From Cyanophora paradoxa CCMP329 (lineage: Eukaryota > Plantae > Glaucophyta), in NCBI GenBank assembly GCA_004431415.1, contig QPMI01000065.1, positions 1 through 33,435 of the forward strand: DNA of 33,435 nt, given 5' to 3'. Position 1 is the stretch's first letter. Each line of letters begins with the position of its first letter. Both the position numbers and the translations under genes were made by a program. The notes beneath the pieces were generated by a model. It had not been told where the DNA came from. It did no database searches and saw only the letters and a list, made by a program, of their open reading frames with translations. Below, piece after piece: positions 4,766 through 33,435 of this stretch.

Positions 4766-5483
4766 CCCGAGGCCTGCGCCTCCAGCCGGGGGCGCCGTCG
4801 GAAGCGTTGGTCAAGGTTCTCCGAGGGTCAAGTTCTTGATGACGCCAGTGCGACTCTGTGCGACCGAGGCGTTGATGGCGTTGCTCCTGCCAGCTGCTCG
4901 CCTAGCGAAGCCACGGTACGGCCCCAGCAGCGGTGGCGGCCAAGAGCCGCGCTCGCATAACGCCTGGGCAGCTCGCCCCGCAGCTCGCCCCCGCGTATTG
5001 CGCGGACAAGCTCGCGTTGACAAGCTTTCTCGCCGGTGCGCTTGTCACTGATGCCCTCGTTTCCACGCTGGCCGGGCCGCGGAGTGCTCGCCTGCTGCGC
5101 CGGGCGAAGATTTGGAATGCGTTTGGCCAGGCCTTGAGTTCGAATTCGCAGTGCGCGTTGATCGGATGCTGTCTAGCTGTACTGCAGCTGCTCGATGCGC
5201 GCGCTCACCAGCAGACTTGGGCAGCGCAGGCTCAGCTGCAGCTAGCTCTGCAATCGCGCATCGATGCGCTCTCGCATGCACAGACGAACCGCTGCGGTGA
5301 ACGCAGCGGTGAACCTGCTGCGAATGCGTGACAAGTGTATTGGCTCGGAAAGGGCGCGCCGCGACCGCTGCCTTGTCAACTCGAACCCTGGGGATTCGTG
5401 GGTCGGCGGTACCCCCCGGACCGGCGTGCGGGGGGTCGAGCCAGGCGTGGCCCGCCACGGGTACGCCGACCCGCCACCGCCAC

Positions 5484-5578
5484 GCGTGACCCCCGTGACT
5501 CCCGTGACACCCGTGACGCGGGCGGTGGTCGACCGGCGGCGAACCGGCGAGTCCGGAATGACGTCACGGTGACGTCAG
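5484..5578. promoter_or_regulatory. Cluster of (C)GTGAC tandem units and a TGACGTCACGGTGACGTCA double CRE-like palindrome
   Basis: cgtgacccccgtgactcccgtgacacccgtgacg (4 units), then tgacgtcacggtgacgtca, upstream of the channel gene. Related motifs recur upstream of other genes in the window. Confidence 0.4.
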
Positions 5579-5595
5579 CGCTCGGAACCGAGTAC

Positions 5596-5840
5596 TTACC
5601 ATGAATCACTAATCATAATGACTCGGCTGACCAATCCCATGGCGACTACTGCTCCCATCAGTGCAACGGCGATTAGCTGGCGGTACAGGACCAGCAGTGC
5701 CAGGATGAGCACGAGCACCGGCGCCGACGCCTGCCAGCCGTAGGCGCTGTGGACTCGCCAGAACAGCGAAAATGCACCGAAGCCCGCGAGCCCGAGCCCC
5801 ACGAGCAGGCCTGAGCCAGCCACAGTGCCTGATTCGCCAT
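5596..5840 (-). CDS. Small hydrophobic membrane protein (~80 aa, 2-3 TM helices)
   Basis: ORF 5596-5823: GLLVGLGLAGFGAFSLFW...PVLVLILALLVLYRQLIAVALMGAVVAMGLV. The ATG at 5840 needs one frameshift to join. Confidence 0.5.
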
Positions 5841-5874
5841 TGATACCAAATGAAAGGATAATGTTCCGATTCAG

Positions 5875-6000
5875 CCGTCGCCAACCCGACGCGACCCGAT
5901 GCGCGCCGACCGTCGAGCGTGCTGTATAAACCGACTCTAGGCGCCGTCACCGTGGTGGTGACGGTAAACCTTGCGGAGTTGAATCAAGGGTTCGAGTCCC
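5875..6000 (+). repeat. Dispersed repeat copy R1 (TATAAA + CCGTCACC/GGTGACGG hairpin + B-box-like GGTTCGAGTCC)
   Basis: TATAAA 5925-5930; 8-bp stem 5944-5951/5957-5964; GGTTCGAGTCC 5989-5999. Closely similar to 8304-8390. Confidence 0.85.
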
Positions 6001-6007
6001 CGCGGGC

Positions 6008-6123
6008 CCGTCGCCGACCCGACGCGCGCCGAACGTCGAGCGCGCCACCAGAGGCGAGCATAGGCGCCGTCACTCTGACGGTGACGGTAAACCCTGCGGA
6101 GTTGAATCAAGGGTTCGAATCTC
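6008..6123 (+). repeat. Dispersed repeat copy R2 (tandem to R1)
   Basis: taggcgccgtcactctgacggtgacggtaaaccctgcggagttgaatcaagggttcgaatc matches R1; the TATA-containing segment is replaced. Confidence 0.85.
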
Positions 6124-6142
6124 GGCGGGTCCCGTTTGGCCG

Positions 6143-6795
6143 ATGGCGCGTCGGGCGCTGGTGCGGTCCTTTCGCGCCCGCCAGTACGGTCGCGGCGCTC
6201 TGATGCATGATTGGCAGCGCGAGCAGTTCAACGGACGGGCGGCGGCCGGCGGCGCGCTCGGCGAGGATTTGAACCGCGAGGGCCACGTGGTGGTGCTGGC
6301 GAACGCCGCCGTGCACGTGGCGCACTGCGTGAACGACGCGCTGCACGAGATGCGCGCGGGCGCCGGCGACCCGTTTGTGTACAACCCGCTGCTCGTCGCG
6401 GCGGTTGCCGGCGTCCAATCGGCGCTGGACGGCGTCGCGAGCTTCTGCGACCGGCACTTCCCGAGCGGCGAGCGGCGGGAGGACAAGCTCTACTTCGACA
6501 GCTACCGGTTCGCGCACCAGTGGCTCGAGCCGGTCGAGCGCGCGCGCCTGGCGCTCCGGCGGCCCGACTTCTACAACGGCGGCGACTTTGCCGCCGTCGC
6601 CAACCGCGCCAAGCACACGCTCCCGTGGTTCGGCGCGCGTCAGCGGACGCGGACGGCGCGCTCGACGTCCGCGACGCCGCCGGCCGCCGCCTGGTCGCCG
6701 GCACAGTCGCGCCCGCCTATCGCCTGCTCTGCCAGTGCGTGGCCGCGCTCGCCGTCCAGTGCGGCGTGCGCCTCCGCGAGTGGCCCGCGGTCTGA
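6143..6795 (+). CDS. Intronless ~215 aa protein, putative HEPN-like (Cthe_2314-type) helical domain; paralog A
   Basis: VAGVQSALDGVASFCDRHF...DKLYFDSYRF...DFAAVANRAKHTLP; one frameshift near 6640. The SALD / KxYF / NxxKH pattern resembles HEPN-like families (recognised by eye, not searched). Confidence 0.6.
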
Positions 6796-6853
6796 CGATT
6801 GTCCGCGCTGCCGTGGCCCGTGATGAATGCGAATATATATACGACAGTACTAC

Positions 6854-7569
6854 CTAACCAGTCAAACCAGACTCCTCGGCTATCGAGAGGCTCAGCGATG
6901 CGTATCGGACGGTGAGGCCAGGCGGTTTGCGACGAAGTACGAGGCTCCGAGCACGCAGGCCTTGCTGAAGTGCGAGTGCGACTCGTACACCGTGGCCGGT
7001 CGGCCGTTGACCAGGAGCGTGGCGCCGAGCGCCGAGACAGACGAGAGGCCGAGCGCCTCGATGACGTCGCCCGAGACGTAGGTGTGCGGCGAGCCCGTGT
7101 CGATGATGAATGGGGCGAACACGGCGCGCCCGCGCCTCGCGGCGACCGGCAGGACTGCGAGCGGCCGGCTGTTGGGGCCGGCGATCTGGCCCTCGACGGG
7201 GAACGCGGGGCGGCGGTCCGGCGGGCTTCTGCGAGGTAAGCGACGCCGAACAGCTGAGCGATTGACTCCAGGTCGCTGCGGTCACGGATGTCCGTGAGCA
7301 GGACGTCGAACTGCTTCGGCGTCACGAGCGCCGGGTGCGCGTCCGCGAGCCCGGCGGCCTGCATGCTTCTGAATAGGAGCGCGAGTGGCGCGAGCGCTGA
7401 GTCGATCTCAGAGAGCTCCGGCGACTTGTCGGGCACGTTGACCCGGATCAACCGAAGCTCCGAAAGAACGTCCGCGATGTTGGCCGCATCGCCGCGCAGC
7501 TGCGACTGGTCGGAGCCCGGCCGGCAGCGCGCGAGCGCCGCTGCAGCCGCCCGCCTCGGCGCTTTCCAT
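6854..7569 (-). CDS. Clan AA (retropepsin-like) single-domain aspartic protease with N-terminal helical extension; frameshifted
   Basis: FIIDTGSPHTYVSGDVIEALG (DTG at 7093-7101), then LLVNGRPATVYESHSHFSKACVLGASYF (the xLG motif). No gag, RT or integrase nearby. Confidence 0.75.
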
Positions 7570-7650
7570 TGAAGGCCTAGTTCGAGCCCCGCGGCCGATT
7601 GGCCCGTGTTCGCTGGCCCGGCGCTTCTTTCGCACGTCGACGGTGAGCCC

Positions 7651-8248
7651 ATGGCGGACGACGCGTTCCCGCTGCTGTCTGACGGTTCGCGCTTCTGCAG
7701 GTGATGCGCGGCGCGCGGGAACCGGCCGCCAGCGGCTCAACGCCGCCGGCCCACTGGCACTGTGCGGGCCGCGGTGTGCGTGGTCGCGCGCTCGTCTGCC
7801 AGGCCCAGGAGCTGTGCGCCGGGGCGGGCGCCGGCGCGGACGAGCTGAACGGGCTGGCTTCACCGCCACCGTGAGCTGGCGGCGCTGCTGGACAGCGTCG
7901 CGCACTACTGCGAGCGCGCGCAGCCGCGCGGCCCGTACGCCGCGACGGCAACATATACTTCGCAAGCTACCCGTTCGCGCAGAGCGATTCCGATTCGTCG
8001 CGGAGGCCGCGCGCGGCTCGGCGAGCTGGCGTTCGCCGCAAGCCGTTCGCCACGCTCGTCAACGAGCTCAGCACCACTGCCCGCACGTCGCAGCCGTCGC
8101 TCTTCGGCGCACGGGCCACTACGACCTGCACGACGCGCGGGCCGCGTTACGTGTACGACGTCCTCGTGCCGGCGTATCGGATCGCGCGCGACGTCGTCGC
8201 GCGCCTCGCGGCCCTGTTGCCGCCGCCGCCCGGCTTCCCCACCCGTGA
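7651..8248 (+). pseudogene. Paralog B of the 6143-6795 HEPN-like gene, heavily frameshifted
   Basis: Stitched fragments AALLDSVAHYCERAQP / DGNIYFASYPFA / PFATLVNEL-x-HHCP / YDLHDA / VLVPAYRIARDVVARLA align colinearly with SALDGVASFCDRHFP / EDKLYFDSYRFA / DFAAVANRAKHTLP / LDVRDA / TVAPAYRLLCQCVAALA. Confidence 0.7.
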
Positions 8249-8303
8249 TGAACGCGAACATACGTGCCACCCAGCACGCTCGCGGTCGGGTGCCGGTCCT
8301 GGT

Positions 8304-8390
8304 GTCGAGCGTGCTGTATAAACCGACTATAGGCGCCGTCACCATGACGGTGACGGTAAACCCTGCGGAGTGAATCGAGGGTCGGATCCC
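8304..8390 (+). repeat. Dispersed repeat copy R3
   Basis: gtcgagcgtgctgtataaaccgactataggcgccgtcacc differs from R1 at one position; hairpin kept; B-box decayed (gggtcggatccc). Confidence 0.85.
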
Positions 8391-8463
8391 TACGAAACCT
8401 GATGAGACCTCGCATGACGTCCGGGTCCATGTAGCGGCGTGAGCATGAGCGCGAGCCCTGACG

Positions 8464-8727
8464 TCATTGTAAGCTTTGCCGGGCCGACGCGCCCGACCAT
8501 GAACGGAGGAGCAGATCACCACGCCGAGCGGCGCGCTGCCTTCCAGCCGAAGCGGCCGTGGAGGCCGCGAAGGCTTGTACAGCCGTACGGCGCCGTCTGG
8601 CCAGCAGCAGCACCAGCGCGTAGAGCGTCAGCTTGAGCTCGAGCTCGCCGCCGTCATCCTCCGCGCCTGCTGCTGCGGCTGCGTCGTCGAGGCTGCGCGC
8701 CCGGCGGTCGTGACTCGGCGTTACCAT
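8464..8727 (-). CDS. Small hypothetical protein
   Basis: ATG 8727: MVTPSHDRR...ELELKLTLYALVLLLA, GC3-rich codons, lying between R3 and R4. The true 3' end is uncertain. Confidence 0.3.
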   Translation of the reverse strand: MVTPSHDRRARSLDDAAAAAGAEDDGGELELKLTLYALVLLLARRRRTAVQAFAASTAASAGRQRAARRGDLLLRSWSGASARQSLQ

Positions 8728-8762
8728 GGTCACTCGTTGCGCTCGAAAAAAACGCGCGCGGC

Positions 8763-8864
8763 CCGTCGCAACCCCACGCGCGCCGACCGCCGAGCGTGCT
8801 ATGGGATGATCCGATCCGTCACGGGTCGAAGGCCGCGGACGCGTCGCCGTCACCGACGGTGACG
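8763..8864 (+). repeat. Diverged repeat copy R4
   Basis: ccgtcgcaaccccacgcgcgccgaccgccgagcgtgct matches the 5' part of R1; cgccgtcaccgacggtgacg matches the hairpin. Confidence 0.6.
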
Positions 8865-9118
8865 CGTCACCGTGACGCGCGATCATGCGGAAGCCGGAAA
8901 ATGCGAGCGCGAAATGCCGCGCGCGCGTTTTCCTGCGGCGCGTTTCCCGGCGCTGCGAACTGGGCCCCGAATGACCTCCGAGCGCCGGCCTCCGAACCTC
9001 ATTCCACTCGCCCAGCGAGATTCGCAAAGCCTCAGCGCTAGCTAGCAACTCACGGTGCGCGCGGTTTTCCCTTGGCTGCAAACTTGGCTGACTTTTCCCT
9101 TTGCGCGCAGATCTCAAG

Positions 9119-12100
9119 ATGAACTCTGCCAAGTCCGACCTCAAGGGCAAGGCGCTCTCACGGTAAGGGGATTTTGCCTTGGTGAAAAGCGCTGCCTTGG
9201 CTGATTTTGCCCGTTTTGCGCAGCCCTTGCGTACTTCACGATGCTTCAGGATTTGTCGTCGAGCCCGATTTCCCTTCGACGAGCGCCGCTGTTTCCGCCT
9301 AACCAGAGGGCCTTGTGCTCGCCGTGCCGTGCGCGGGGCTTGGCTTGCCGATTGAATCGCCTCTAACTCCCGTCCGTCTTTGGCGCAGGCGGACAAGGCC
9401 ACGTACGTCATGCGCTGTCGACAAGGACAAGCAGTCCCGCGTCCCCGAGGTCATCGACATGACCGATATCGAGGACGAGCCCGCCGGCAGGGCCCCCGCC
9501 CCGCCCGCGCGCCAAGGGTCCGTGACTCTGCCGAAATTTCTCGCATGACGTCACGCTGACCTTTTCGCGCCACGCGGCCGTCCCTTGAACTTCCCCAGCC
9601 TGGCTGCACCGGCGGCCGCGCGGCCGCGGCGCCTGTGCCGGCCCTTCAGCCAGCCGCCGCGGGCCTTCGAGCAAGCCGGCCTCGGCGGCCTCTACGTCGG
9701 ACGACGACGACGACAACGTGCGCTGAACCGCTGTGAGCCCCGCCCTTGCCCGCGTGCCTGCCCACGCTCACCGCCTTGCCGGCAGTGAAGCGCGGCCGGG
9801 ACTCTGAGATGCCGCCGCCAAGCCCGCCGCTGCCAAGCCCGCCGCCGCCAAGCCCGCCGCCGCCAGCCCGCCGCCGCCAAGCCCGCCGGCGTCTCGCTGC
9901 CAAGCTCGCCGCCAAGGCTGCCAAGTTCGCTGCCAAGTTCGCTGCCGAGCCCGCGGCCAAGCCCGCCGCCGCCAAGCCCGCGAGCCCTAGTGCGTAACCC
10001 TGTTTTTCGTCTGTTTGAATAGCCCATTGACTCCCGTTGTGCGCAGAGCCGGACGACCCACGTTCCAGCTCATCCCCTCGGCTCTGATTCCGTCGAGCCG
10101 ATCAGCCGCCGCCCGGCCCCGGCTGCCGCCGCCCCGGCCCGGCCCCGGCCGCGCCCGCCCGGCCCCGGCCGACGCCCCGGCCGACGCCCCGGCTGCCGCT
10201 GCCAGCGACGACGAGGACGTTGTCGGTCGCCAGATTCGGGAGGCCACTCAGAAGCCCGCGGCAAGGACTCCTCGACAAGGTCGCCAGCGACGCGTGGGAG
10301 AACGAGTCTGTGCGTGCGAGTACGGCAAGCCTACCTTGTGTGCGCATCGGAGCTTCGCATGGCCATCATACCCACGAGCCAGCCTGTGTCTCCCAACGCG
10401 CCGAAGAACTACGTGACTCGCGAGTGCAAGGCCGCATTGCATCTGCAAGCGCACCGCAGAGTACGACTACGACTCTGGCGAGGTCACGGAGATCCGCGCC
10501 AGGCGCGGGATGGCGAGTCGAAGATGATTAATGACAGCGAGAGCTCGTACAAGGTGAAGCTGGGCGGCCAGACGTGCTCTCACGTTCACTGAGATCGAAG
10601 CCATCAACCGCGAGCTCGTCCACTGGCCCGTCACTCTCGACAAGGACGGCAACTGCTGCATCAAGGGCAAGGCGCGCGACGCCGCCATGGAGCGCTACCT
10701 GGCCGCGAAGGCGCGCCTCAACATGCGGAAGACTGCCGCCCTTATGGCCGAGGTGAACCTATTTCTATTCAATCCGGCACCTCTAGATCTGCGCTGACTT
10801 GGCCGCCGCAGACCGGCGAGGCCGGCGGCAAGGTCTTGAACAGCAAGTTCGGCACGACCGTCCAGCCCAACGCGAGCTCGGTGGCACTACGAACCCCTCC
10901 TGTTCAGCTGCGGCTCGAAGCTCGGCTGCAGGCTGCCAGCTTGACGGTGCGCCGCGCGACTGAATCGGTTCAATTTCATTCAATTGGCTCACTTTCCCGC
11001 AGATCGCCAAGGCGTACGTCGACCCCAAGATGCTGCGGGCCCGCGCGATCAAGGCGTTCGACGACACGTTCTTGGACGTCATTTTCCGGCTCTACTCGAA
11101 GCAGGAGGTGCACAGATGGACGCGGAAGGAATCGTGAAGAGCGTCATCGCGATATCAAGGAGGACTCAATCAAGTTCCTCGTCGAGGAGGCATCGTGCCC
11201 GAGAAATCGTTCTCGTCAAGACCCGCATCCACCGCGCCTTTGTGAGCCGCCGGCCGCCGCACGCGGCGTACATGGGCGTCTGCCGCCTTCTCGGCGCGCA
11301 CACCGGCGCCGCTGGCAGCAGCAGCAGCCCGCCGGCGCCCGGCCGCCCGCGGGCCTGGCGACCCGCGGCGCCCGGCGCGCCGCGCGCGCCCGCGGCGCCC
11401 GTGTCGAGCCCGAGCGATGGACGTCGACTCGAGCCGGCGGCGGACCCCGAGCCGGCGGCCGAGTCGGACCACGCGACCGAGACCGAGGGCCCAAGCGCAA
11501 GCGCGCGAAGACCTCTGCCGAGGAGCTGACGCCGAGGCCAAGGCCGAGAAGCGCGCGAGGCGAACCGCAAGGCGCTGAGACCAAGGCCAAGAACGAGGAG
11601 GCGTGGGCCCGCGCCGTCCAGAAGGGCTACAAGTTCAACGCCAAGGAACTCGAGGTGCGCGGCTGAACTCAATCGCGCTCAATCGCACGCCTGACTCCGC
11701 GGCGCGCAGAAGGACACCCTGCCGAGCCGCGCGCGGCACGTCGACGACTTCCGCAAGCTCGTCGCCGAGAAGCGCGCCGAGTTCCTGGCCGTCGCGCGCC
11801 CGCTCCGGAACTTCGAGAAGGCCATCTCTAACGCCCGCGCCGTGATTGAGAAGCGCCTCGCGGCTGCCGATTGCAAGCCCAAGGAGAAGTCGGCGCTCCT
11901 GAAGAAGCTCGAGGCCGCGGGGCGTGCGACAAGGCCGAGGAGGCCCTGCGTGACATCACCGAGGAGATGGTCGCGGGGTGGCGCCAGACGATCGACGATC
12001 TCGAGTCGGCCTTCTTCACGCGCTACAACATCCCCAACTTCGCGCCCGTGGCGGCCGACTCTGCTGCGGTCGCTGCGACTTCAAGAAGATCGTGGAGGCC

Positions 12101-12310
12101 TCGCAGCGCTACAAGCGGCACAACCCCGGCTTCGGCCCGCCCCGCCGAGCGACGACGACGGCTTCTTCACCGACGCCGACGCCGTTGACGGCGACGCCGA
12201 CGCCGACACCTTGGCCAACGCCGCCAGCGAGGCCGGCGACGCGGCCGGGACGTGGCAGAGGCGCTGCTCTCGATGGCCGCCGAGGCGGCCGCCGGGACTT
12301 CGACGAGTAG
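9119..12310 (+). CDS. Large spliced hypothetical protein (Pro/Ala/Lys low-complexity, Cys/His patch, C-terminal coiled coil and acidic tail); frameshifted
   Basis: GC3-rich exon fragments (VPEVIDMTDIEDE; EIEAINRELVHWPVTLDKDGNCCIKG; IAKAYVDPKMLRARAIKAFDDTFLDVIF; DDFRKLVAEKRAEFLAV; LESAFFTRYNIPNF) separated by gt...cgcag introns; TGTAA at 12337. Confidence 0.6.
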
Positions 12311-12412
12311 GCGGCCTCTAGCTAGGAGTTGTGCAGTGTAAATAACTCAGTCAGTTTGGCTTATATTCGTGGCTTTGTTTGATCGCAAATACTTATATAT
12401 TCAATTCACACT

Positions 12413-20318: not shown

Positions 20319-21412
20319 ATGCCTGTCCTCGACCCCGCCAGGATCGCCCTGCTGGCGAAGAAGGTGGAGCAGGCGAACACGCAGTACAGCAAGAAGGCCG
20401 CCGAGGAGACGCTGATGAGGTACATCGAGAACCGCAGGGCGCTCACCCCGCCGCGGTACCGCTACCGGTACGCGGCGGCGGCGGGCGCGTGTACGACCAG
20501 TACGAGACGATCGACGGGTTCATGAAGCTCGTGGAGAAGCGGATGGGCACCGGGGCGGCGGGTGCCCAGGGCACGGCAGAGCTCCAGGATCTCACGAGGC
20601 TTCCGGCGGCGGCGTCGGTGGAGGACCGCCTGAAGATGCTCGAAGGGGTGCGGAAGCACAAGATCGAGCTCAAGGAGGCGGGGGCCACCCCGGAGGAGGT
20701 GGGGATACTCGACTACATGTTCCGCGTGCAGAACCCCGGGGCGGTCCTGCCCCCCAACGCGCCGAAGATGCCGGTCCCCGGGACCCTGGGCACGCTGGCC
20801 GGCGCCATGACGATGCTCCTGGGCCTGGGAGGGGGGGGTCAGGCGGCGGTGGCGGGCGCGGCCGCGGTCGGCGACGCGGTGGGCCAGATCATGGGCTCGC
20901 CGCAGTTCTGGAGGTCCGTGAACCAGCTCGTGGGCTCGAATAAGCTCATGCCCGAGGACCTCCACCGGCTGCTCGAGTCGCCCGGCTTCCTCCGCGCCAT
21001 GGAAACGGTCCGGGATGCCCGGCGCGAGGAGACCGAGGGCAAGCGCATCAGCTCCGCGATCGTGCAGCAGGCGCTGTCGATGATGACCACCGAGCCGGCG
21101 TGGGCCCGCAACCGCCGCTGGGCCGGCGCTCGGGGCGCCGCGGGCCCGGGGGACGCGCCGGTCGCGCCGGTCGCGCCGGCGGTCCGGCCGGTCCCGCGGC
21201 CCCTCCGTGATCACGCCGCGACCCTACATGACCGTCTAGCGCCGCCGAAGTTTTTGTTTAGGTACTTTGAGGACCCCGCACTTCCGCCGCCGCGCAAGAA
21301 CCCGCTCTCGTCCGCGAAGAGGCCGGGGTTGATTAGCCACGCAAAACACTACTGGTACAGGAGGCGGGTACCGCTCGCGTTCTGCCGCATGACGTTGAAG
21401 CCGACGGCGTAG
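20319..21412 (+). CDS. Viral hypothetical protein (~350 aa) with a central Gly/Ala hydrophobic segment; one frameshift near 20490
   Basis: MPVLDPARIALLAKKVEQAN... joined to YDQYETIDGFMKLVEKRM...GTLGTLAGAMTMLLGLGGGGQAAVAGAAAVGDAVG. The 3' end overlaps the MCP end and is uncertain. Confidence 0.65.
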
Positions 21413-22559
21413 ACGAGGAGGTCGAGGTCGGCGTCGGTGCCGGGCGACGCGAAGGTGAAGTTCATGAGGATCTGGTCGACGGTGCCGAGGTTGAGCGAGC
21501 CGGTGGGGCGGTGCGTGTCGGCGTCGAGACAGAAGGGCAGGCAGAAGATGTCGCGGTCGGGGACGCGACCGTGGACCTCGCGGGGGGTCACCACCTTGTA
21601 GTAGGTGGGCGGCAGCGGCGGGACGCGCTCGTTGCCGCGGAGGGTCAGCGAGAGCGTCTTGAACCGCTCGGGGATGGCGTTGTAGAGGGTGGCGGGGTCG
21701 GCGTTGTTGTCCGGCGTGGGGTCGTCGTGCTCGTAGTCGAAGAGGCGGCCGTTGGTGGCGCGCTCGAACTCGCGGAAGACGAAGAGGAGCTCCTTGCAGG
21801 GGCCCGTGAGCCTGATCTCGGCCGCGAAGGTCTCGGAGCCCTTGGGGACGCGGAACTCCTGGGTCTGCCAGGTCTCGACGAGGCGCTCGAAGGGGCGGTT
21901 GACCTGGGTCTTCTCGGGCTCGTCGAGGTAGATGAAGTTGCAGAGGAGGTAGGCGTCGGTGATCTGGCCGCTGAGGACGCGGTCGAGGGCGGGGATGGGC
22001 TCCAGGGCGTCGTCCGTCTGCAGCATGACGAGGTGCTTGAGGGGGCGGAAGGTGACGGCGACCTTGATGTCGGGGCTGCCCATCACGGGGTGCGCCGTCT
22101 GCGGCAGGCGCGTCCACGTGGGGAGCGGGACGATGAACCTCTGCGTCTCGTTGGAGACGCGGCGGAGGTAGCCGGGCGTCCAGTCCCAGTCGCCGATGAG
22201 GGGCGCGAGCGGCTTGTTGATCTCGTCGACGGAGAGCGCCGACTGGAGGTCGATGTGCTCGGGGCGGATCTCCTGCACGACCGCGCCGCCGATGGAGATC
22301 ACGACCTTCTCCCACATCGCGAGCCCCAGCTTGTTCGTCCAGTGCCAGTAGTTCACGCCGTCCGAGGGGGTCTGCACGAGGGGGCCGACCTCGAGGACGA
22401 GGTACACGCGGTGGAGGAGGTCGCACTGGCGCGGGACGGTCGTCCAGGCCGTGCCGCCGTACGCGGCGCCCATGGGGAAGGAGACGCGGACGGGCTGCGA
22501 GACGAAGGCGCTGTGGCGCTTGGTGCCGCCCGTCCAGAACGTGATCTCGGGGTTGAACG
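21349..22559 (-). CDS. NCLDV-type double-jelly-roll major capsid protein (divergent), missing roughly the first 15-20 residues
   Basis: Open frame starts upstream of the tracked Met: FNPEITFWTGGTKRHSAF...VPRQCDLLHRVYL...ISIGGAVVQ...YLLCNFIYLDEPEK...PCKELLFVFR...LRGNER...FCLPFCL....RPTGSLNLGTVD...VYAVGFNVMR. This is colinear with the Vp54-family motifs NPQITFF / GDL / IGG / YIYLD / PVKEL / PSGSLNFSRID / YAxNYNVLR. Confidence 0.92.
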
Positions 22560-22563
22560 AGGG

Positions 22564-22752
22564 TTCGTCTTCTCACACCACTCGTGGTACAGGTCGAGCA
22601 GGTCCTCCTTTCGGATATACCACTTCTTGTAAGTGCGGTCGTCCCGTGTAATCGTGGCATCCAGCTCGACCTTCGTAAGGAGCTGTTTCGCATGTCGCAG
22701 ACGGCCCCGGACGGACCTCGACGGGCCGAAAACGGCGCGACCTTTTGGACAT
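22564..22752 (-). pseudogene. 5' remnant of a gene with a winged-helix-like segment (RFX / D5 C-terminal type), abutting the MCP
   Basis: DRTYKKWYIRKEDLLDLYHEWCEKTNP resembles the IxxxxLxxxYxxWC helix pattern. Codons are less GC3-biased than the MCP. The ATG at 22752 needs one frameshift. Confidence 0.45.
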
Positions 22753-22986
22753 CCCGCTAGTTCGCGAGCTTTAACAATGGATGGAATTTGAATTTTGAAC
22801 ACGGCCGTGTCACGGCGGCTATCAGCCGGCTGAGTTCGAGTTCGAGCTGGCTAGACCAAATTCTATATCCCCCCAAGCCATCTCCCCCCCCTTCCAAGCC
22901 ACGGCCAGCTGCAGCTAGATTGCGGCCAGCCACGGACTTGCGCGGGAAAAGCAAAAGCGCTTATAGCTTAGCGTTCGGCGATCGAG

Positions 22987-24790
22987 ATGCCGCTCTCTGT
23001 GCTGTCTGCCAAGGTCGGCTCAGCGTTCGGTTCCATTAGAGCGTGGCTGGGCGGCGCCAGCGATGGCAGGCCGCGGCACGGCCAGATTGGCGGCAGCACC
23101 TGCGGCAGCCAGGACGACCTCGGCGAGGACGTGAATCCAGACGACTTTGGCGACGCAGCTTTGAGCGAGCAAGTCGTTCAGCCTGCGCATGCAGCGCCAG
23201 CTGCGCATGCGACGGCCGCGGTCGCGCTGGCGCCTCCCGCGGCGGAGCCGGCGGGCGGGAGCGACTCCCCACAAGTCTCGCCAGTACGCTCAGAGCTCGA
23301 GCAGAGCCCCGGCAGCGGCTGCTGTGAGACGCCAGGGACGCCTTTGGGGGGGGGTACGCCTGTACAGCCGTGTACGCCGCCTGTCGCAGCTGCCTCATCA
23401 GCGACCCCCGTGTACACGCCTGATCGCCCGCGTCGCAAGCGGGTAGTAGCTGCGCCCTCGCAATCGCAGCCTTCGCATGATCAGCCGGCCACGCCTCCAC
23501 GCACGCAGCCGCCGGCGGCAGCGGCCTCGCCAGCGACCCCGTGGACATGCCTAAGCGCGTGAGTCGCAAGCGGGCAGCGGCGGCGACCTCCCAGCCTTCG
23601 CCCGCGGCGGCACCGAGCGAGCAATATGAGGATCCCTTCGTTGCCATGGAGCGGTATATGGACGATCCCTCTGTCGCGCCGTCGCCTGCCAGCTCAGCCG
23701 CGAAGAAGCCAGCCCCGAAGAAGCCCGCCACGTCCACCAAGCAGCAGTGCAAGCGGCGCAAGTGCGATGTCGAGATGACGGGCGAGGAGGAAGATCGATT
23801 CACCCCCTGGGACAAGCCCGGGCGGCACCGCTTTCGCATCGAGGAGGAGGACGCCGCACTCTATCGGAGGCTCACCGGCTGCAAGCGGGTTTCCGATGCG
23901 GTTCGCATGGCGTCCAAGCTCCTTGAAGCGATCGAGTACCTTCAGCAGCGTGTGCGCGCGCCGTTTCACGCCGCCGTGCGCTTCGCCCGCAGCTTGCCTC
24001 GCTGATTCGGGCCGCAGGATGTCCTAGACAAGGGTCTAACTGGCGCGGAGCTCGCCAATCAACTGAAGGCGAAAGTCGACGTGTTCCTCCGTGCACCGGC
24101 GCAGCGTGAGGAGCTCCAACAGAAGTGCAGCTCCCTGGAGCGGGAGCTCCCTGATCTGCGGTGGGCCAACAGGGAGAAGCAGCGGCAGATCGCTCAACGG
24201 GAGGAGAAGATCGCTCAGCTGGAGAAGGAGATGATGCAGCTCAACGCCAGTCTGGTGAGCCCGCCGGCCGCCGCGCCGCCCGCGCCGCCGGCGCCCGCAA
24301 TGCGCTGCTGACGGCGGTCCCTCCGGCGCCCGCAGAGAGCGACTCGGGTCAAAAACCTCGAAGAGGAGTGCGAGGAGCTGCAGAACCAGAACGCTGCGCT
24401 GCAGACGAAGGTGGATGACTTGGAAAACAAGGTCCGCGATTGCCCACACGCGTGCGTGCGCCCGCTGGCGCGTAACGCGGCGCGGCGCAGGTCTCAAGGA
24501 TGAAGAGGAATTGGGACTTGGAGTTGGAGCGTGAGGCGAAGGTGTGGCGGAAGGAGGAGCGCATGTACATAAAGGAGGTGGAGGAGCTGGAGGCCGTTAT
24601 CGAGTATCTCTACATGAGGGACGTGCTCATGCGGGAACCCCGGGGGCCTAGGTCGCAGGGTGGGTCGCCGCGGTCCAGCAGCTACACGCTGCTGTGCCGC
24701 CGGAGACGTCGCCTTTCGAGGCGCCCGCCATCGGGCGCTAGCCCCGGCCCGCTCGCTTCGTCCTGCATAGCTAGAGCTCTCATCGGATGA
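22987..24790 (+). CDS. Spliced hypothetical protein: disordered Pro/Ser N-terminus, basic NLS-like patches, long C-terminal coiled coil
   Basis: ORFs 22987-23562 and 23541-24005, plus exons EELQQKCSSLERE...IAQLEKEMMQLNASL, NLEEECEELQNQNAALQTKVDDLENK and ELEREAKVWRKEERMY, separated by gt...gcag introns. Confidence 0.65.
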
Positions 24791-24921
24791 GAAAAATTTG
24801 TGTTCCTTTTGCGCATGCGTCGCCCACACGACAGCCGGGCGGGGACGCGGGGCGCGGCTGGGTTGGCTAACTGTGCGTGCATCCGGAGCCTCCGAGCAAG
24901 CCTAGCCTATAAGCTCGGCGA

Positions 24922-25072
24922 CGCTGAGCTAGGTGCGCCCGGCGCGCCTGGTAATCTGCTCGGGAAGGTCGGAACGGCTTGGGCACGGAACCGGGGTCGG
25001 CCGCAAAGGCGGACCGTGCCAGACCCAATCGCGCTGAGCTACGCCGGCGCGCCTGGTAATCTGCTCGGGAAG
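24922..25072 (+). repeat. Direct repeat pair with a 29-bp identical core
   Basis: ccggcgcgcctggtaatctgctcgggaag at 24939-24967 and 25044-25072, each preceded by cgctgagcta. Confidence 0.85.
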
Positions 25073-26223
25073 CTCGGGATGAGTCAAGGCCTCGCACCTG
25101 GGGCTGGCAATCCATGCACTGCGGCAAGCAGCCGCTGCCCCACCGACCTCGTCTCGCAGAAGCGGGTCACGGAGATGAAGGAAGACCGCGTGAAGCGCCG
25201 CGGGCGCTCTCGTGGCATGCCGGGCCGGGCCGGGCGTATGCGTACCCGGTTGGCCAGCGGAGGAAACTCGGCTGACTGAGCGGCTCGCGCTTTCGACAAC
25301 GTGGCACTGTGGCACTGTAGTACACCTGGCGAGGCGCACGCCGCGACAACGATTCGGCGAGGCGCACGCCCTCGCCCGCGAACTTGGAACATACGCACGC
25401 CTGCCCTGGATCGCGGACCGAGCCTCGGAGACTTCCGCCCTCTCCGAGGCTCATGGCTGAAGCTGCGATAGCATGGTGCCGGCTGGCTGAGGCCGCCCGT
25501 GCCGGAGCAGCTGCAGCCGGGGCCAAGTGGCTGGCCGGCGCCTTAAGCGCGCGGCTGCACTGCGAGCGGGGAGCTGGGCTCGCTGTCGGCGGCAATCTTA
25601 TCCGCTCTCAAGGTTTCGCAAGGCTGCGAGCGCGCGGCGACCCCGGTATCGCGTTCGCAATTTTTGATCTGCCAGGGAATCTGCACTCCGAGGCTTGCGA
25701 TTGAAGCACGGCAGCCTCGTATCTTGATTAGAACTTTTTATTCAAGATGTAGAGGCGTCACACGGCGTTATTTAGTGCCCTGCACAAAGCCCCGCGATGG
25801 GCCCATTTAACCCGTCATACCATATGACTCATCATACGCCTATACACTACGTTACAGCTAGTCTTCTGCTGACTTTTGGCCCTTCCAAATTGGGCCCATC
25901 GCCCAGGAGCTGGGAGACATCGAAAAAAGCTTAGAGAACCTTTTTAAAGCACTATATAAGGCCTCCTATGCAGCTGCAGGGTCGGGGGAGGCCTTGTATG
26001 GCGCGAAAATAGGCTCCCGAGGCCCCCGGACTGCCAGAGTGTCCCGGAGGCCCCCGACTGTCCCGCCAGGCGCCCCGCCCTGTCAGCCCGCCCCGCCAGC
26101 CCGCCCGCCACTCTCGGTAGTCACTGAGTGCCACGGTGCCACGGTGCCACGGTGCGCGCACGATAGCAGAATAACTAGTAAATCTGTCGTATTCAAGCCA
26201 GGTGCAGACTGCAGCTGGTGACT

Positions 26224-27320
26224 CTAGCTGCAGACATCGTCCGGCCGCGAGACGAGGACGCCGTCGCCGGCAGGGCGGCGACCGGCGGGGCGGGGGCGGG
26301 GGCCGGCGGGCGGGGCGGGGGCCGGCGGGCGGGGCGGGCGGGCGGGGCGGGGCGGGGCGGGGGCGGGCGGCGGGCGGGGCGGGGCGGGCGGGGCGGGCGG
26401 GGCGGGGCGGGGCGGGCGGGGCGGGGCGGGCGGGGCGGGGCGGGGCGGGGCGGGGCGGGGCCGGCGGGCGGGGGCGGGGCCGGCGGGGCGGGGCGGGGCC
26501 GGCGGGGCGGGGGCGGCTAACGGCGGGGCGGGGCGGCTAACGGCGCTACGCTTCGTCGTCGGCATCGTCCGGCCGCGAGACGAGCACGCCGTCGCCGCGA
26601 CGCAGGCGGCGGCGCTTGCACCGAGCAGCAGCAGCAGCCCGTCCGCCTCCGCCGCCGCCTCCGCCGCCTCCGCCGCCGCCGCCGCCGCCGCCTGCTGCTG
26701 CCGGATGCGCACCCGCTGGAAGTGCTCCGCGCACTTGAAGAGATTGTCGCCGAAATGCTCCATCTGCCCCGCCCGCCGCTGCAAGGCCGTCACGTTGTCA
26801 TAGAGAGGCTTGAAGGCCGCCTCCTCGTAGAGCCCGAGGGGTCCTGCCCGCAGAAGCGCGCCGTGCTGCGGTGCTTGCGGATCTCCGACCGCAGGTTAAT
26901 GGCCTCGAGGAGGTTGTTGTGCGCCAGCGCGACCTCGAACTGCTCGTACAGCTGCTCGTGCTCGCGCATCCACGCGCGCGCGTACTCCAGCAACTGCTGA
27001 GCTCGGCCAGCTTGTATGGCCTCACCGAGTCGCGCTCTATTGCGAGGTTGACCTCCAAAGCTGCCTGGTGGCGCCGCCTGATCTCATCCTCCTCCTCGAG
27101 CGCGCGCTCCTCGTCCGCCTTCATGCGCGCCCTGCGCTCGGCGCGCTGCCGCTGGTCCATCGCTCTCCGAGTCGCTGCTGTTGATCTCGATGACAGACGA
27201 AGTCATTGGGCGATTGCACGGCGCGTTGATGGTCTCCTCCTGGTCCTCCTCCTCGGACACGTAGTCAGCGGGCATATGCTTCGCTCCACAGCTAACATAG
27301 CTACACTGTCGATGCGACAT
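26224..27320 (-). CDS. Hypothetical helical protein (acidic patch, coiled coil, poly-Ala, Pro-rich tail); frameshifted
   Basis: Stitched: DYVSEEEDQEE; RMKADEERALEEEDEIRRRH; LLEYARAWMREHEQLYEQFEVALAHNNLLEAINL; FKPLYDNVTALQRRAGQMEHFGDNLFKCAEHF. Divergent from the transposase gene. Confidence 0.55.
26283..26540 (+). repeat. (GGGGC/GGGC)n G-rich tract bracketed by 35-bp direct repeats
   Basis: About 250 bp of almost pure G/C; catcgtccggccgcgagacgag(g/c)acgccgtcgccg at 26235-26269 and 26563-26597. Confidence 0.85.
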
Positions 27321-28232
27321 AGCTAACGCTTGAGGCTGCTTCAGGCCCACCAGCTGCAGGGCGTTCAGCTGGAGTTGGACGTTCAGCAGTTTGCGTACCC
27401 AGTCTGGGCATGCTCCCCTTGCTTAGCGCGTCATACCCATATCGACGAGCGAGCATCGCGGCCGGCAAGGACCGCGCGGGTGGACCAGCCGCTTCGCCTA
27501 AGGTAGCTATGCATCGCAATTGCGCATTATCGCGCATGCTGGCTCGCCTGCTGCTCTTCGGCGCCTAACTGTCGCGGATGTGTATGCTTGCTCGCGGCGC
27601 TCGGAGCTGCCGCTTCCGCAGATGGCAGGGGAGGTACACGCGATCTTTTTTTCCGAGTTTTGAACCCGCCGCGCGATGCAGCGACCCATCGCGCCCCGTC
27701 CCGCGGCCCAGCCCGCGCCCCAAACGTTTCCAGCGCCCGCAGCAGTCGTTTTAGAGATGGCGGACGCGTCGGTCGCGTACCAGGCGCTTATGCGGATCAT
27801 CGCAGTGCTCACCACAGCCGAAACGCCCACCTGGAACTGGAGGCGCGCGGCATTGCGTCTCCATTGTATCCGCATAGCTTAGCTTGCACGGCGGCGCTTC
27901 AAGAGGCCACCGCAGTGGCTGTGTTCCTCCAGTGCATCCTGCAGAGCCCTCCAGCTTCGCCACCCGGGTCGCCATCGGCTCCAGCGAGCCCGCAATCGCC
28001 TCAGATTAGCCCAGAGCAGCAGCAGCAGCGCGGTCGTCGCGCGTTCGGCGCCGACGTGGTATGCCGCTCATTCAAATTCGATGTCATGACTTGACTTGCC
28101 CGCGCTTACGAGTGTATGCTCTCTGCCCGGCCGCGAGCAGACGAATGCAGTTCTTAATGAGGCGCCGAGCCCGGCGCCGCGGCCGGCCCCGGCCCCGGCA
28201 CCGCCCCGAAACGCGCTCGCGGCAAGGAAGAT

Positions 28233-31192
28233 GTGCCGCCTGAGGAGCGGATCGTCCGCAAGGCGACGCTCAAAGCGCGCGACGAGCGCATCGCAGTGCT
28301 TGAGGCGGAGAACAAGAAGCTTAGGGAGGAGCACCAGTCGAAGCGCGCCAAGGTCCCGCGGACTTCGGCACAGCGTGCAGCGACCATCTCGCGCATAGCT
28401 AGGCAGGTCCCTGGGAAGGATGCTCGGATACGTCCAGGCAGCGGCGCACGCGGTTCCTCCGCATGCTGCTCTCGACGATTCTAAACGCTGCGAGTCCGGA
28501 CATCCAGATCCGCCTCCCCATGTTTAAAAAGAACTTCGCGAGGTACAAGGCGGGGCGGCGCGCGCGCAGGCATATGCATGCTTATCCAGGGCGCCCCAGG
28601 AACAAAGGAGAGGAGGAGGGCGCCTATCAGAAGAGGAGGGAGGCGCTGGAGGCGGAGGCACGCCGCCTCGTGAGCATCATCGGGCACACGCAGTGCGCGT
28701 TATTATACATAAAAAGAGCTACCGAGAATCGTACTTTAATAGGCTACAAAATCGTTGGAGAAGAGCACCTTTCTGAACCACCGTCCGCAGGCCCAACGAG
28801 CCCTGGAAACGAGCAAATCGGGTCAGCTGCAAGTGAAGAAGGCGATGAGCATCGCCTGCAGGAAGCTGCGGGACACCTTCCCGACTGCGAGATTCTAGAG
28901 TGGAAGGACCGCCACTGCATCTCGGACGTGCGCCCTTTCTCGAATGTTTTAACCCCCATCCCGTTCTAAACCGACCCGGGGCAGGCGACGTACTTTGAGT
29001 TCACGAAGCTCCTCAAGAAGGCCCTGAAGAAGCACTTCGTGGGCTGCGAGCTTCCTCCCGTCGAAGCACTGCATCACGAAGCTACGGGGCAAGGTCAACG
29101 ATGACCTCGAGAAGGCGCGGCGCGCGCGCGCGGGGCGGGGGTGAGGGACGAGGCTCACCGAGCGGTGCAGATCGTGCAGATCGTCGAAACAGCGGCGGGC
29201 GTCGGCGACGAGGAGAACAAGGGCAAGCCGGGCGTCATGCTCGAGCTCTTTGTGCTCCGTCGAGCGCAGCGCCGGCGGCGGGCGGAGAGCGGCAGCGCCG
29301 GCGGCGGGCGGAGAGGCGGCAGCGCCGCCGCCCGCAGAGCTGTCACGCGACGCCCGCCCTGTCGGCCCTCATCAGCGCTTTCGTCCCGCTGCACAAGCAC
29401 AGGGGGAAGAAGATCAGACCTCGAGTCCGCCTGGCGGGCGACGGGACGATCGCGTTCCGCGGAAGAGCGTCTCCACGACCGACGGCATGACTGCATCGTG
29501 GCAATCGTCGACGGCTACTACGTCATCGAGGAGGACGGGACGCAGGCGTACCACCCGCTGAAGGGCGTTCAGAGCTGCTACGCCCTCCTGCCCCTAATGC
29601 TCTTCGGCGGTAGCGACAGCGAGGAGAACCTGCGCCCACGCATCAAGCCCCTCGCCGACATGGTCGAGTACCTGAACGAGAACCCGCTCACCCTGATCCC
29701 CGGTACGAGCACGACAAGCCGTCGAGGTCGAATTCTTGGTGACGGCGACTACAAGTTCCTCGCGTCCTCCTCGGCTTCGACCTGTGCCCGCACTGCGATC
29801 TGTCCACCGACGCGGGTCAGTTCGCCGAGTCACACGCGCTGAGATTCGGCATGGGGCTCACGTTACTGCAGGTCCGAGTGCTCGGCGGTCGAAGTCGTGC
29901 GCGCAGCAGGCCGCGGATCGGGACGGCCTCCCTCCAGCCAGCGAACAGAGAATCCGCACCCCGAGCACGACGCCAACGCCCTCCTGCAGCCGCTCCGAAC
30001 AGCATGCTGCCCGTCGCTGCCGTCGAGGTGAGAAGCCCGCGACACCTCGCCTCAGCGGACGCCAACGCGCACCTCAGGTCCGGCTCGACGACGCCCTGCA
30101 CGGCATCAAGAGCTGGGTGGCCGGGTTCTTCGTCTACTTCTTCCTCGCCCTCGCCTGTGGTGCCTCGAGGACCAGCAGAAGCGCATCGAAGACCTGCAGC
30201 GTCATCTTCGCGATAAATACGCGCGGAACATCAAGTTCGAGAAGACCGAGAACGGGGCCACCTACAAGTTCTTCCAGAGATCTCCGCCAACACCGCCAAG
30301 AAGATCCTGGAGGACCCCGAGGCGCCCGACACCTCTTCAGCATCTGCTTCGGCGACAGTAAGGAGAGCTGGAGCGAGAAGACGAGGGCATGCACGAGATT
30401 GGCAGCTCCGCCAGATCATCTACCAGTACGAGCGGAACATGAAGCCCGACGAGGAGGCGCGGCAGCAAGTTATCGAGGCCGTCGCCGAGCTCCAGGCCTG
30501 ATGGAGACACACTTCCCGTTATGGAAGATCTTCACACGCTACATGCACTCGACGCTTGCGCACCTCGCGTTCTGGGCGCGCGTCGACAACACGAACGCGC
30601 CGGCCGTTGGAGCTGCGAGGTCATCGAGTCCTACATGGGCCTCCTTCGGCGCCTGCGACACACCGTCACGTCTCTCGGTGGCGGGTGGAACAAGGACCTC
30701 GACATGCTCAAGCAGATCATGACGCACCAGCGGCGGCGCCTGGCGCTGTGGATGCGGAACATGACGGAGGCGAGCGCCGGCGGGAAGGACGCTGCCACGC
30801 CGAGTACGACGCGCCCGTCGCCGCCAAGGCCTGGCCAGATGGCCCTTCATCCCCCGACCTGCGGCCCGTCCCCACCGTCAGCGGCTATGCAGGGCGAAGG
30901 GGCGGCGGCGGCGCCGCCGGGGCGAGGAGGTGGCAGCGGTGCCCCTGCTGCGGACGAGGAGGAGATCGACGAGGATATTGAGCTGCAGGAGGGGGATCCG
31001 GTGCCGGAGGACGAGGTGCCCGAGGAGAGCGGGGACGAGAGGAGGAGGAGGAGGAGACCGCCGAGTACGACGCCGAGCAGAGGAGGAGGCGGAGGAGGAG
31101 ATGAGGCGGAGGATGAGGGCGCCAACATGCTCGATTTCGATGATAGGGCCCTAGCAGAGGTTCTAGCAGACGATCTAGCGGAGGGGGAATAG
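28233..31192 (+). CDS. RAG1/Transib-like DDE transposase; intron-containing, frameshifted, acidic C-terminal tail
   Basis: D1 in VRLAGDGT (29440); LLPLMLFGGSDSEENLRPRIKPL (RAG1 [23 protein letters not shown]); D2 in GDYKFL (29747); CPHC (29785-29796); DALH (30090-30101, RAG1 IDALH); YMHSTLAH (RAG1 YFHKTLAH); GRWSCEVIESYMGLLRRLR with E at 30626 (RAG1 GAWASEGNESGNKLFRRFR). Introns at 28928-28984, 29252-29337, 29816-29871 and 30028-30077. Confidence 0.85.
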
Positions 31193-31223
31193 ACGAAATG
31201 GATTTGACCAGACATAGCGCACT

Positions 31224-31228
31224 TGTAA
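31224..31228 (+). promoter_or_regulatory. TGTAA poly(A)-signal-like motif between the convergent genes
   Basis: About 30 nt after the transposase stop. The same motif lies ~27 nt after the 12310 stop and ~15 nt after the 17100 stop. UGUAA is the known chlorophyte poly(A) signal. Confidence 0.4.
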
Positions 31229-31229
31229 C

Positions 31230-33203: not shown

Positions 33204-33435
33204 GCACGCGGCGTGCAGGAATGCTCGCGCTCGGGCGTGCGCGATGGCGGGAAGCTAGCTAGTCCGGCCTAGCCGAGGGAAGCTGACTAGCAAGCCGGCC
33301 TGCTGACCGTTACTGTGACCGTTGTGGCCGCGTGTGTACGCCACTGTGTACGAGGCCAAGTTCGAGCTCAAGTTTGCGCTGGGCTAATTTCATTGGGCGA
33401 AGAAGTTAACAATGGGCGGGGCGTGACGCAAACTC

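Follow-up and report, generated by a model that had tools for sequence, protein, structure and literature searches.

The punuivirus giant endogenous viral element (GEVE) of Chlamydomonas reinhardtii is described (10.1101/2024.09.03.611062) as an integrated Nucleocytoviricota-type genome of 617 kb which carries PolB and RNA polymerase genes, is bounded by terminal inverted repeats (TIRs) of 10-15 kb with ACC-GGT termini and by target-site duplications (TSDs) of a fixed length of 6 bp, and is accompanied by relic copies, with no identified integrase. The endogenous phaeovirus elements of Ectocarpus are reported to possess conserved ends and a dinucleotide flanking each insertion, the latter representing an invariant CC (or GC) core coupled with a tyrosine recombinase (PMC13236599), and members of the Mriyaviricetes are reported to combine a Nucleocytoviricota-type capsid, the lack of PolB, and a likely nuclear lifestyle with genomes of 35-45 kb and an HUH endonuclease (PMC11253617). 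Here, we describe an island of small genes and repeats located between positions 5596 and 8864 of a 33,435-nucleotide stretch of the genome of Cyanophora paradoxa CCMP329 (contig QPMI01000065.1, positions 1 to 33,435, forward strand; hereafter, the window). This island lies within a multi-copy element that starts at position 5373. The element resembles the punuivirus GEVE in being an integrated Nucleocytoviricota-type genome with TIRs, a TSD of fixed length, relic copies, and no identified integrase, the phaeovirus elements in its conserved ends and in the dinucleotide flanking each insertion, and the Mriyaviricetes in its capsid type, the lack of PolB, and a likely nuclear lifestyle.

The island probably forms the left-hand terminal arm of a giant-virus-like element, in which the repeats function as promoter modules and not as recombination sites. 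This proposal builds on the element ends, the 2-bp target duplications, a capsid gene, a constant gene order, and spliced RNA of two island genes (A and B), all of which were observed directly. In contrast to the punuivirus GEVE, the element possesses short, imperfect TIRs of approximately 80 bp with TTGTC/GACAA termini, a TSD of only 2 bp, and a target motif at a fixed distance; unlike the phaeovirus insertions, its flanking dinucleotide is not invariant, and no recombinase was found. At up to 111 kb it exceeds the size reported for the Mriyaviricetes, and a motif scan of the element for an HUH endonuclease returned no convincing match.

A target duplication of 2 bp is present at 7/7 two-ended insertions (CC, TC, CG, GA, GC, TC, and CT, thus comprising six different dinucleotides). 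In addition, the host sequence GGGTAC begins on one side or the other of the element, 21 bp (five sites) or 22 bp (two sites) from its end, against a background of 65 occurrences in 61,100 bp (approximately 0.002 per site), a figure which applies to a motif first noticed on these very sites. The rule was formed on six insertions, and the seventh, a diverged copy of 103 bp on C229 (duplication CT, offset 22), was examined thereafter. GGGTAC also lies approximately 38 bp inside each of the two element ends, those of the diverged copy of 103 bp included. As the duplicated dinucleotides vary, a staggered cut is favored over a recombinase core. The integration signature differs from the punuivirus and phaeovirus types and was not found in the open-access literature searched (the GEVE tables of PMC12344493 may list the locus). 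The features of the window are as follows, gene sequences being taken from the allelic copy on C12 given the bases missing from the window:

5371..5372, no strand: 2-bp target-site duplication CC, which recurs in the allelic C12 copy, following its right end
5373..5460, plus strand: left element end, an imperfect TIR from TTGTC, with the GGTACCCCC motif approximately 38 bp inside
5559..5577, no strand: TGACG/CGTCA palindrome of the repeat-core type
5609..5840, minus strand: small membrane-protein open reading frame (ORF), termed TM, of 77 aa in C12, missing by deletion from C227, C126, and C37 and shortened in C100
5874..6006, plus strand: R1, with the CCGTCGCC(A/G)ACCC motif, TATAAA, a CGTCAC-N7-GTGACG palindrome, and a B-box-like GGTTCGANNC
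6007..6135, plus strand: R2, a tandem copy immediately upstream of gene A
6143..6795, plus strand: gene A, with a predicted HEPN-like fold, the motif A-N-x-x-K-H, and a 57-nt intron at approximately 6161-6217
6817..6837, plus strand: 21-bp motif that recurs at 8242-8262, in the 3' end of B
6854..7569, minus strand: retropepsin-like protease ORF with a DTGS motif, 240 aa in C12, with RNA-type contigs in 4/4 runs
7643..8248, plus strand: gene B, a paralogue of A (38% identity), with a 59-nt intron at approximately 7643-7700 and coding from approximately 7704
8304..8392, plus strand: R3, with a spacer and flanks that differ from copy to copy as mosaics of the R1 and R2 types
8390..8727, minus strand: ORF C, 116-120 aa, with hydrophobic segments and no family
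8755..8877, plus strand: R4, whose left sub-motif (8755-8800), approximately 35 bp upstream of ORF C, is followed by a TGACG palindrome
9119..12321, plus strand: intron-rich gene of approximately 900 aa, without family or outside homologue; candidate insertion enzyme
21352..22572, minus strand: double-jelly-roll major capsid gene of the Nucleocytoviricota type, its 5' end cut by an internal deletion junction at 22561/22562
22674..33435, no strand: unrelated high-copy element inserted in this haplotype, the remaining viral right arm being located on C431

The copies have their left and right ends in common; two-ended copies of the element measure 110,899, 18,210, 9,213, 8,066, 1,523, 326, and 103 bp, and the window copy is of the 18-kb internal-deletion type, broken at 22674 by the high-copy element. 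The copies on C64 and C12 have flanks in common and are allelic, and the island-bearing insertions therefore number five independent events. The capsid gene product matches PF04451 (E value of 4.7e-20), with PF16903 also above the cut-off. The longest copy, located on C126 between matching TC duplications, encodes an AEP_C962R domain (PF23162, E value of 5e-15), Chlorovirus glycoprotein repeats (3e-31), and LicD, F-box, and S74 domains; a helicase linked to the AEP primase was not found in this copy. Long ORFs cover 0.43-0.87 of the sequence in 9/10 stretches of the C126 copy, compared to 0-0.2 in 12/12 stretches outside it. Searches of viral_contigs with the capsid, the A3 alignment, and P0109 yielded no relatives, and the 900-aa and 431-aa element proteins had no match in Pfam, PHROGs, NCBIfam, PDB, or Atlas.

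Several additional observations were made on the element copies and their surroundings. Within the longest copy, positions 187590-187819 of C126 comprise a right end followed, after a unique spacer of 68 bp whose tips are palindromic, by a 161-bp left end, an arrangement which could be the record of a circular or tandem junction, and the adjoining 4.6-kb right arm (C126:178136-187590) is present twice, forming a nearly perfect inverted repeat which reflects either fold-back replication or an assembly artefact. The C126 copy holds extra genes (L031:3117-4085) where the window copy has none (21244-21271); internal gene content thus differs between copies by indels located away from the R repeats. 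The 1.5-kb derivative on C26 (L032:7039-8561) carries an ORF beside the TM gene which is missing from the window copy. A further viral stretch, poor in introns and distinct from the element, is located at approximately 73-96 kb of C126, 85 kb outside; it contains a strong VLTF3 match and an IS630-like fragment, the latter having been found in the integrase search. This genome also contains at least 150 A32-ATPase and at least 30 Capsid_N matches and is thus heavily loaded with other endogenous viruses; C400 and C406 hold two long PolB-like ORFs that lack introns. Methylated GEVEs are reported in Cyanophora paradoxa (PMC12344493). The high-copy element at 22674-33435 is approximately 11 kb in length and 99% identical on many contigs, with no Pfam match in the six ORFs tried.

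The first-pass annotation had described four copies of a repeat in a single orientation, with R1 and R3 closely similar, and this was borne out: R1 and R3 are direct copies with 91% identity over 80 nt, R1 and R2 are direct tandem copies with 81% identity over 129 nt, and R4, which corresponds to the left part only, aligned to R1 with a local score of 59, compared to a maximum of 33 among 200 shuffles. A repeat confined to this locus, or a generic short interspersed nuclear element (SINE), was named in that annotation as a finding which would refute its reading. Copies are, in fact, located on 6 contigs, with at least 16 genome-wide matches to R1-R2; a SINE, for which dispersed, context-independent copies are expected, was rejected, all of these matches (16/16) being located within element copies. 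The CGTCAC-N-GTGACG core occurs four times in the longest copy, in each case within the left arm, and the repeat spacers are interchanged among R1, R2, and R3 between element copies. TGACG half-sites are transcription factor sites. The CCGTCGCC(A/G)ACCC sub-motif is positioned 34 and 35 bp upstream of the ATG of TM and C, respectively, both of which are leftward genes, and approximately 91 bp before one right-arm gene, and has 0 occurrences in 61.1 kb of host DNA. The B-box-like GGTTCGANNC is present in R1-R3 and, in 110 kb of host DNA, at 7 sites. The scans of the repeats returned no tRNA and a single chance match in Rfam, RNA folding of R1-R3 gave z values of -0.6 to -2.1, and a sigma-70 scan, which has no bearing here, was empty. 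A second family of repeats with a TATA-like box was observed upstream of small right-arm genes (L022:2734-2883 and 3442-3581; L042:2189-2326), and shares the CCGTCGCCAACCC motif with R1, R2, and R4.

The small genes are present in the order previously annotated, namely TM (minus), A (plus), protease (minus), B (plus), and C (minus). Their frames are broken in the window relative to the allelic C12 copy, with 2, 1, 7, 19, and 13 bases missing from TM, A, the protease, B, and C, respectively; because the extra bases at the listed indels are present in two DNA runs, the frame breaks are likely to be assembly errors. Contrary to the first-pass annotation, not all of the genes are intronless. The 57-nt GT..AG intron of A is spliced out in RNA-type contigs from 2/4 runs, belonging to two studies, and is retained in the one DNA contig which spans it, while the 59-nt intron of B is spliced in 2/4 RNA-type runs, albeit with weaker evidence (sides of 20-24 nt, depth of 2.5-3.4). 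An RNA contig of A extends into R2, up to position 6057, although such contigs cannot reveal transcription starts, and the lack of RNA-contig cover for TM, C, and the intron-rich gene is uninformative. Differences between copies are few overall, with silent-to-replacement ratios of 6:3 for A and 5:2 for C. The 21-bp motif shared by the 3' ends of A and B, present in 6/6 copies, is a trace of the duplication from which these genes arose.

The family to which A and B belong comprises 105 representatives. A model of A built from 77 sequences attained a predicted local distance difference test (pLDDT) score of 92.8, and in a structural comparison four of the top five VIA rows were HEPN proteins (Z scores of 9.5-10.7, root-mean-square deviations of 3.0-3.4, and 124-132 aligned residues), the best match being Csm6 (Z score of 10.7, deviation of 3.2, and 128 aligned residues). 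The Atlas lead for the fold is 0.89, and the predicted helical fold resembles that of HEPN RNases (Csm6, HepT, and AF0298), as does the presence of a His-containing motif at a helix end. A HEPN-like fold is, therefore, plausible on the basis of the model. A single-sequence model of A (pLDDT of 53) retrieved generic bundles only and was discarded. Pfam HEPN matches were absent from 77/77 family members, a PDB sequence search with the family profile yielded 0 matches, and BFVD contained no match at an E value of 0.001 or below. The protease ORF harbors DTGS, a match to PF13650 which falls below the cut-off (E value of 0.003), and Atlas scores of 0.86-0.87 to labelled clusters, making an aspartic protease identity plausible at the sequence level. 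Word-index protein searches, in which one query was a frameshifted ORF, returned only proteins of this genome. As regards the wider distribution of the A/B family, of 10 homologue clusters looked up, a single one bore a name and consisted of C. incerta proteins on a 592-kb contig; a C. incerta contig carrying a GEVE is reported at 592 kb (PMC9693826). The sole metagenome neighborhood examined for A/B relatives contains PIF1, GH46, and KilA-N genes, which we read as giant-virus-like. A lone diverged family match is located at C304:43051-43329, outside the known element copies. In the C. incerta protein P0044, the A/B-family domain is predicted to be fused to a C-terminal region, a fusion which may be a gene-model artefact. 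This C-terminal region presumably resembles the RuvC domain of Fanzor/TnpB, judging by motifs for which no library gave confirmation.

A number of results weigh against the reading of the island as the promoter-equipped arm of a giant-virus-like element. PolB (0/13 genome matches on C126), VLTF3 (0/31 genome matches inside the element, the one on C126 being 85 kb outside), and an A32 packaging ATPase (none in the element among 150 scored of 483 candidates, and no Walker A by motif) were not found, nor was an integrase within the 111-kb copy; as a consequence, the designation "virus" rests on the capsid, the primase, and the accessory genes. The one-ended remnants on C227 and C232 have no GGGTAC on the available side, as is the case for the internal end-to-end junction of C126; these three sites are uninformative, however, since the motif sits on one side only. 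With respect to the promoter role, no repeat is located upstream of B, and the CCGTCGCC(A/G)ACCC sub-motif also occurs at sites without an adjacent ORF. The sequencing runs were labelled as RNA by the guess of the tool employed, and the sequences of the RNA contigs deviate at several positions from that of the C12 copy, such that other element copies may be those which are expressed. Replacement differences between copies exceed silent ones in the protease (3:7) and B (3:6). The HEPN Z scores fall within the range of plain helical bundles, a designed minibinder ranking second (Z score of 10.1), and Foldseek of the A model returned no match at an E value of 0.001 or below. The canonical HEPN catalytic motif is R-x4-6-H. 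A and B do not possess this motif but A-N-x-x-K-H, without Arg: the expected catalytic Arg position is Ala in 57/76 family members (register from sequence) and Ala/Val in A and B, while Lys (71/77) and His (72/76) are conserved in the family. The HEPN-like and aspartic protease assignments of the first-pass annotation thus stay plausible as regards fold and DTGS motif, whereas the catalytic Arg is missing, and it is for this reason that we consider it doubtful, though possible, that A and B are nucleases.

Bacterial integrons likewise place small genes near imperfect palindromic repeats, and the first-pass annotation had read the island as an integron-like cassette array in which the repeats, acting as promoters and/or recombination sites, would permit effector genes to be gained, lost, and shuffled. 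The mosaic spacers, in which R1, R2, and R3 types are mixed differently from copy to copy, and the origin of A and B by duplication agree with such an array, as does a single back-joint (8264 -> 5902) in one DNA run, which fits either a circle or the R3 variant of C100/C37. Nevertheless, when the repeat copies and their adjacent ORFs were mapped, the cargo between R sites was constant rather than variable, the A-protease-B-C order being identical in 5/5 independent insertions. The only cargo losses are those of TM, through deletions which end outside the repeats (the 5584-5827 deletion was seen in 2/2 DNA runs), and no R1-to-R3 deletion is present among the joints listed (15 of 55, DNA contigs only). 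Moreover, the one-gene-one-site layout of integrons is lacking, there being no repeat between A, the protease, and B, no gene between R1 and R2, and genes on both strands, and no tyrosine recombinase was found among 171 overlapping, filter-chosen translations compared against Pfam, nor by motif. Constant gene order and the restriction of the repeats to element copies leave cassette shuffling unsupported, and we consider the array very unlikely; the promoter half of the earlier claim fits the sub-motif spacing and the A RNA contig, while a host defense island gives way to part of a provirus-like element. Alternatively, the repeats may be Pol III/TFIIIC (B-box) elements which insulate A, the protease, and B from provirus silencing or yield small RNAs, a rather unlikely scenario, albeit one compatible with the left-arm reading. 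The three RNA-covered genes are indeed flanked by GGTTCGANNC in R1-R3, and viral genes are reported to be methylated in Cyanophora paradoxa (PMC12344493). However, the frequency of GGTTCGANNC in host DNA given above, the lack of a tRNA/Rfam match, the absence of a T4 terminator 3' of the repeats, and the absence of covariation in the repeat hairpin (1/27 pairs with a two-sided change) argue against this scenario.

Teratorn-like transposon-virus fusions provide a model for a further explanation, according to which the element arose when a DNA transposon captured a giant-virus part, the island being transposon cargo. The TIRs, the TSDs, the derivatives of 103-326 bp, which are akin to miniature inverted-repeat transposable elements, the intron-rich gene adjoining the left end, and the lack of a PolB or VLTF3 match inside the element are all in keeping with this view. 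We nonetheless deem it unlikely: approximately 100 kb of dense viral genes separates the ends, one upstream motif is common to both arms, the A/B family is found in giant-virus contexts, and no transposase family was matched. As concerns the enzymatic step only, insertion may have been passive, a Type IIL/MmeI-like nuclease cutting approximately 20 bp from its site to leave a break with 2-nt overhangs into which the ends were ligated. MmeI-family enzymes are reported to cut at a distance of approximately 20 (+/-1) bp from their 6-bp recognition site, the two cuts being staggered by 2 nt (PMC2731913), a geometry matched at 7/7 element sites, including the variation of the offset by one base. 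These are restriction enzymes, however, and not integrases, and the element shows no methyltransferase motif ([DNS]PP[YFW]) that lies within a protein-like context. The conserved placement of GGGTAC in both element ends, including those of the diverged 103-bp copy, and the precise TTGTC/GACAA termini point instead to an end-specific enzyme, making passive insertion improbable.

Under the reading of the island as the left arm of a giant-virus-like element, the CCGTCGCC(A/G)ACCC part of the repeats would serve TM and C, both of them leftward genes, and the part comprising the TGACG palindrome would serve A. The repeats may have spread locally by the duplication that produced A and B, with occasional conversion, as suggested by the swapped spacers, keeping them alike while leaving the cargo unchanged. 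A, B, and the protease are presumed to be expressed from integrated copies, and A/B would act during latency as RNA-binding or RNase-like effectors with a HEPN fold, for example against superinfecting viruses or on host RNA. A DDE-like enzyme would carry out the integration, recognizing GGGTAC in the ends of the element as well as in the target and making a staggered 2-nt cut approximately 20 bp away, and the short derivatives would have been either mobilized in trans or deleted in place. By analogy with prophage morons, we tentatively raise the broader possibility of an undescribed, polymerase-less Nucleocytoviricota-like lineage of approximately 100 kb, which would integrate by means of a new class of enzyme reading one short motif in ends and target and cutting 20 bp away, and would carry at its terminus a latency module in which insulated promoter repeats switch on non-canonical HEPN effectors and a protease.

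With respect to how giant viruses enter host chromosomes, the element, on the basis of seven sites, displays a third signature in addition to those of the punuivirus and phaeoviruses. Since naturally occurring copies that consist of ends only define the sequences required in cis, the search for the responsible enzyme is narrowed. The island furthermore provides a case in which accessory genes located at a provirus end are transcribed and spliced, and places a so far unnamed, 105-member family of HEPN-like proteins in giant-virus contexts.

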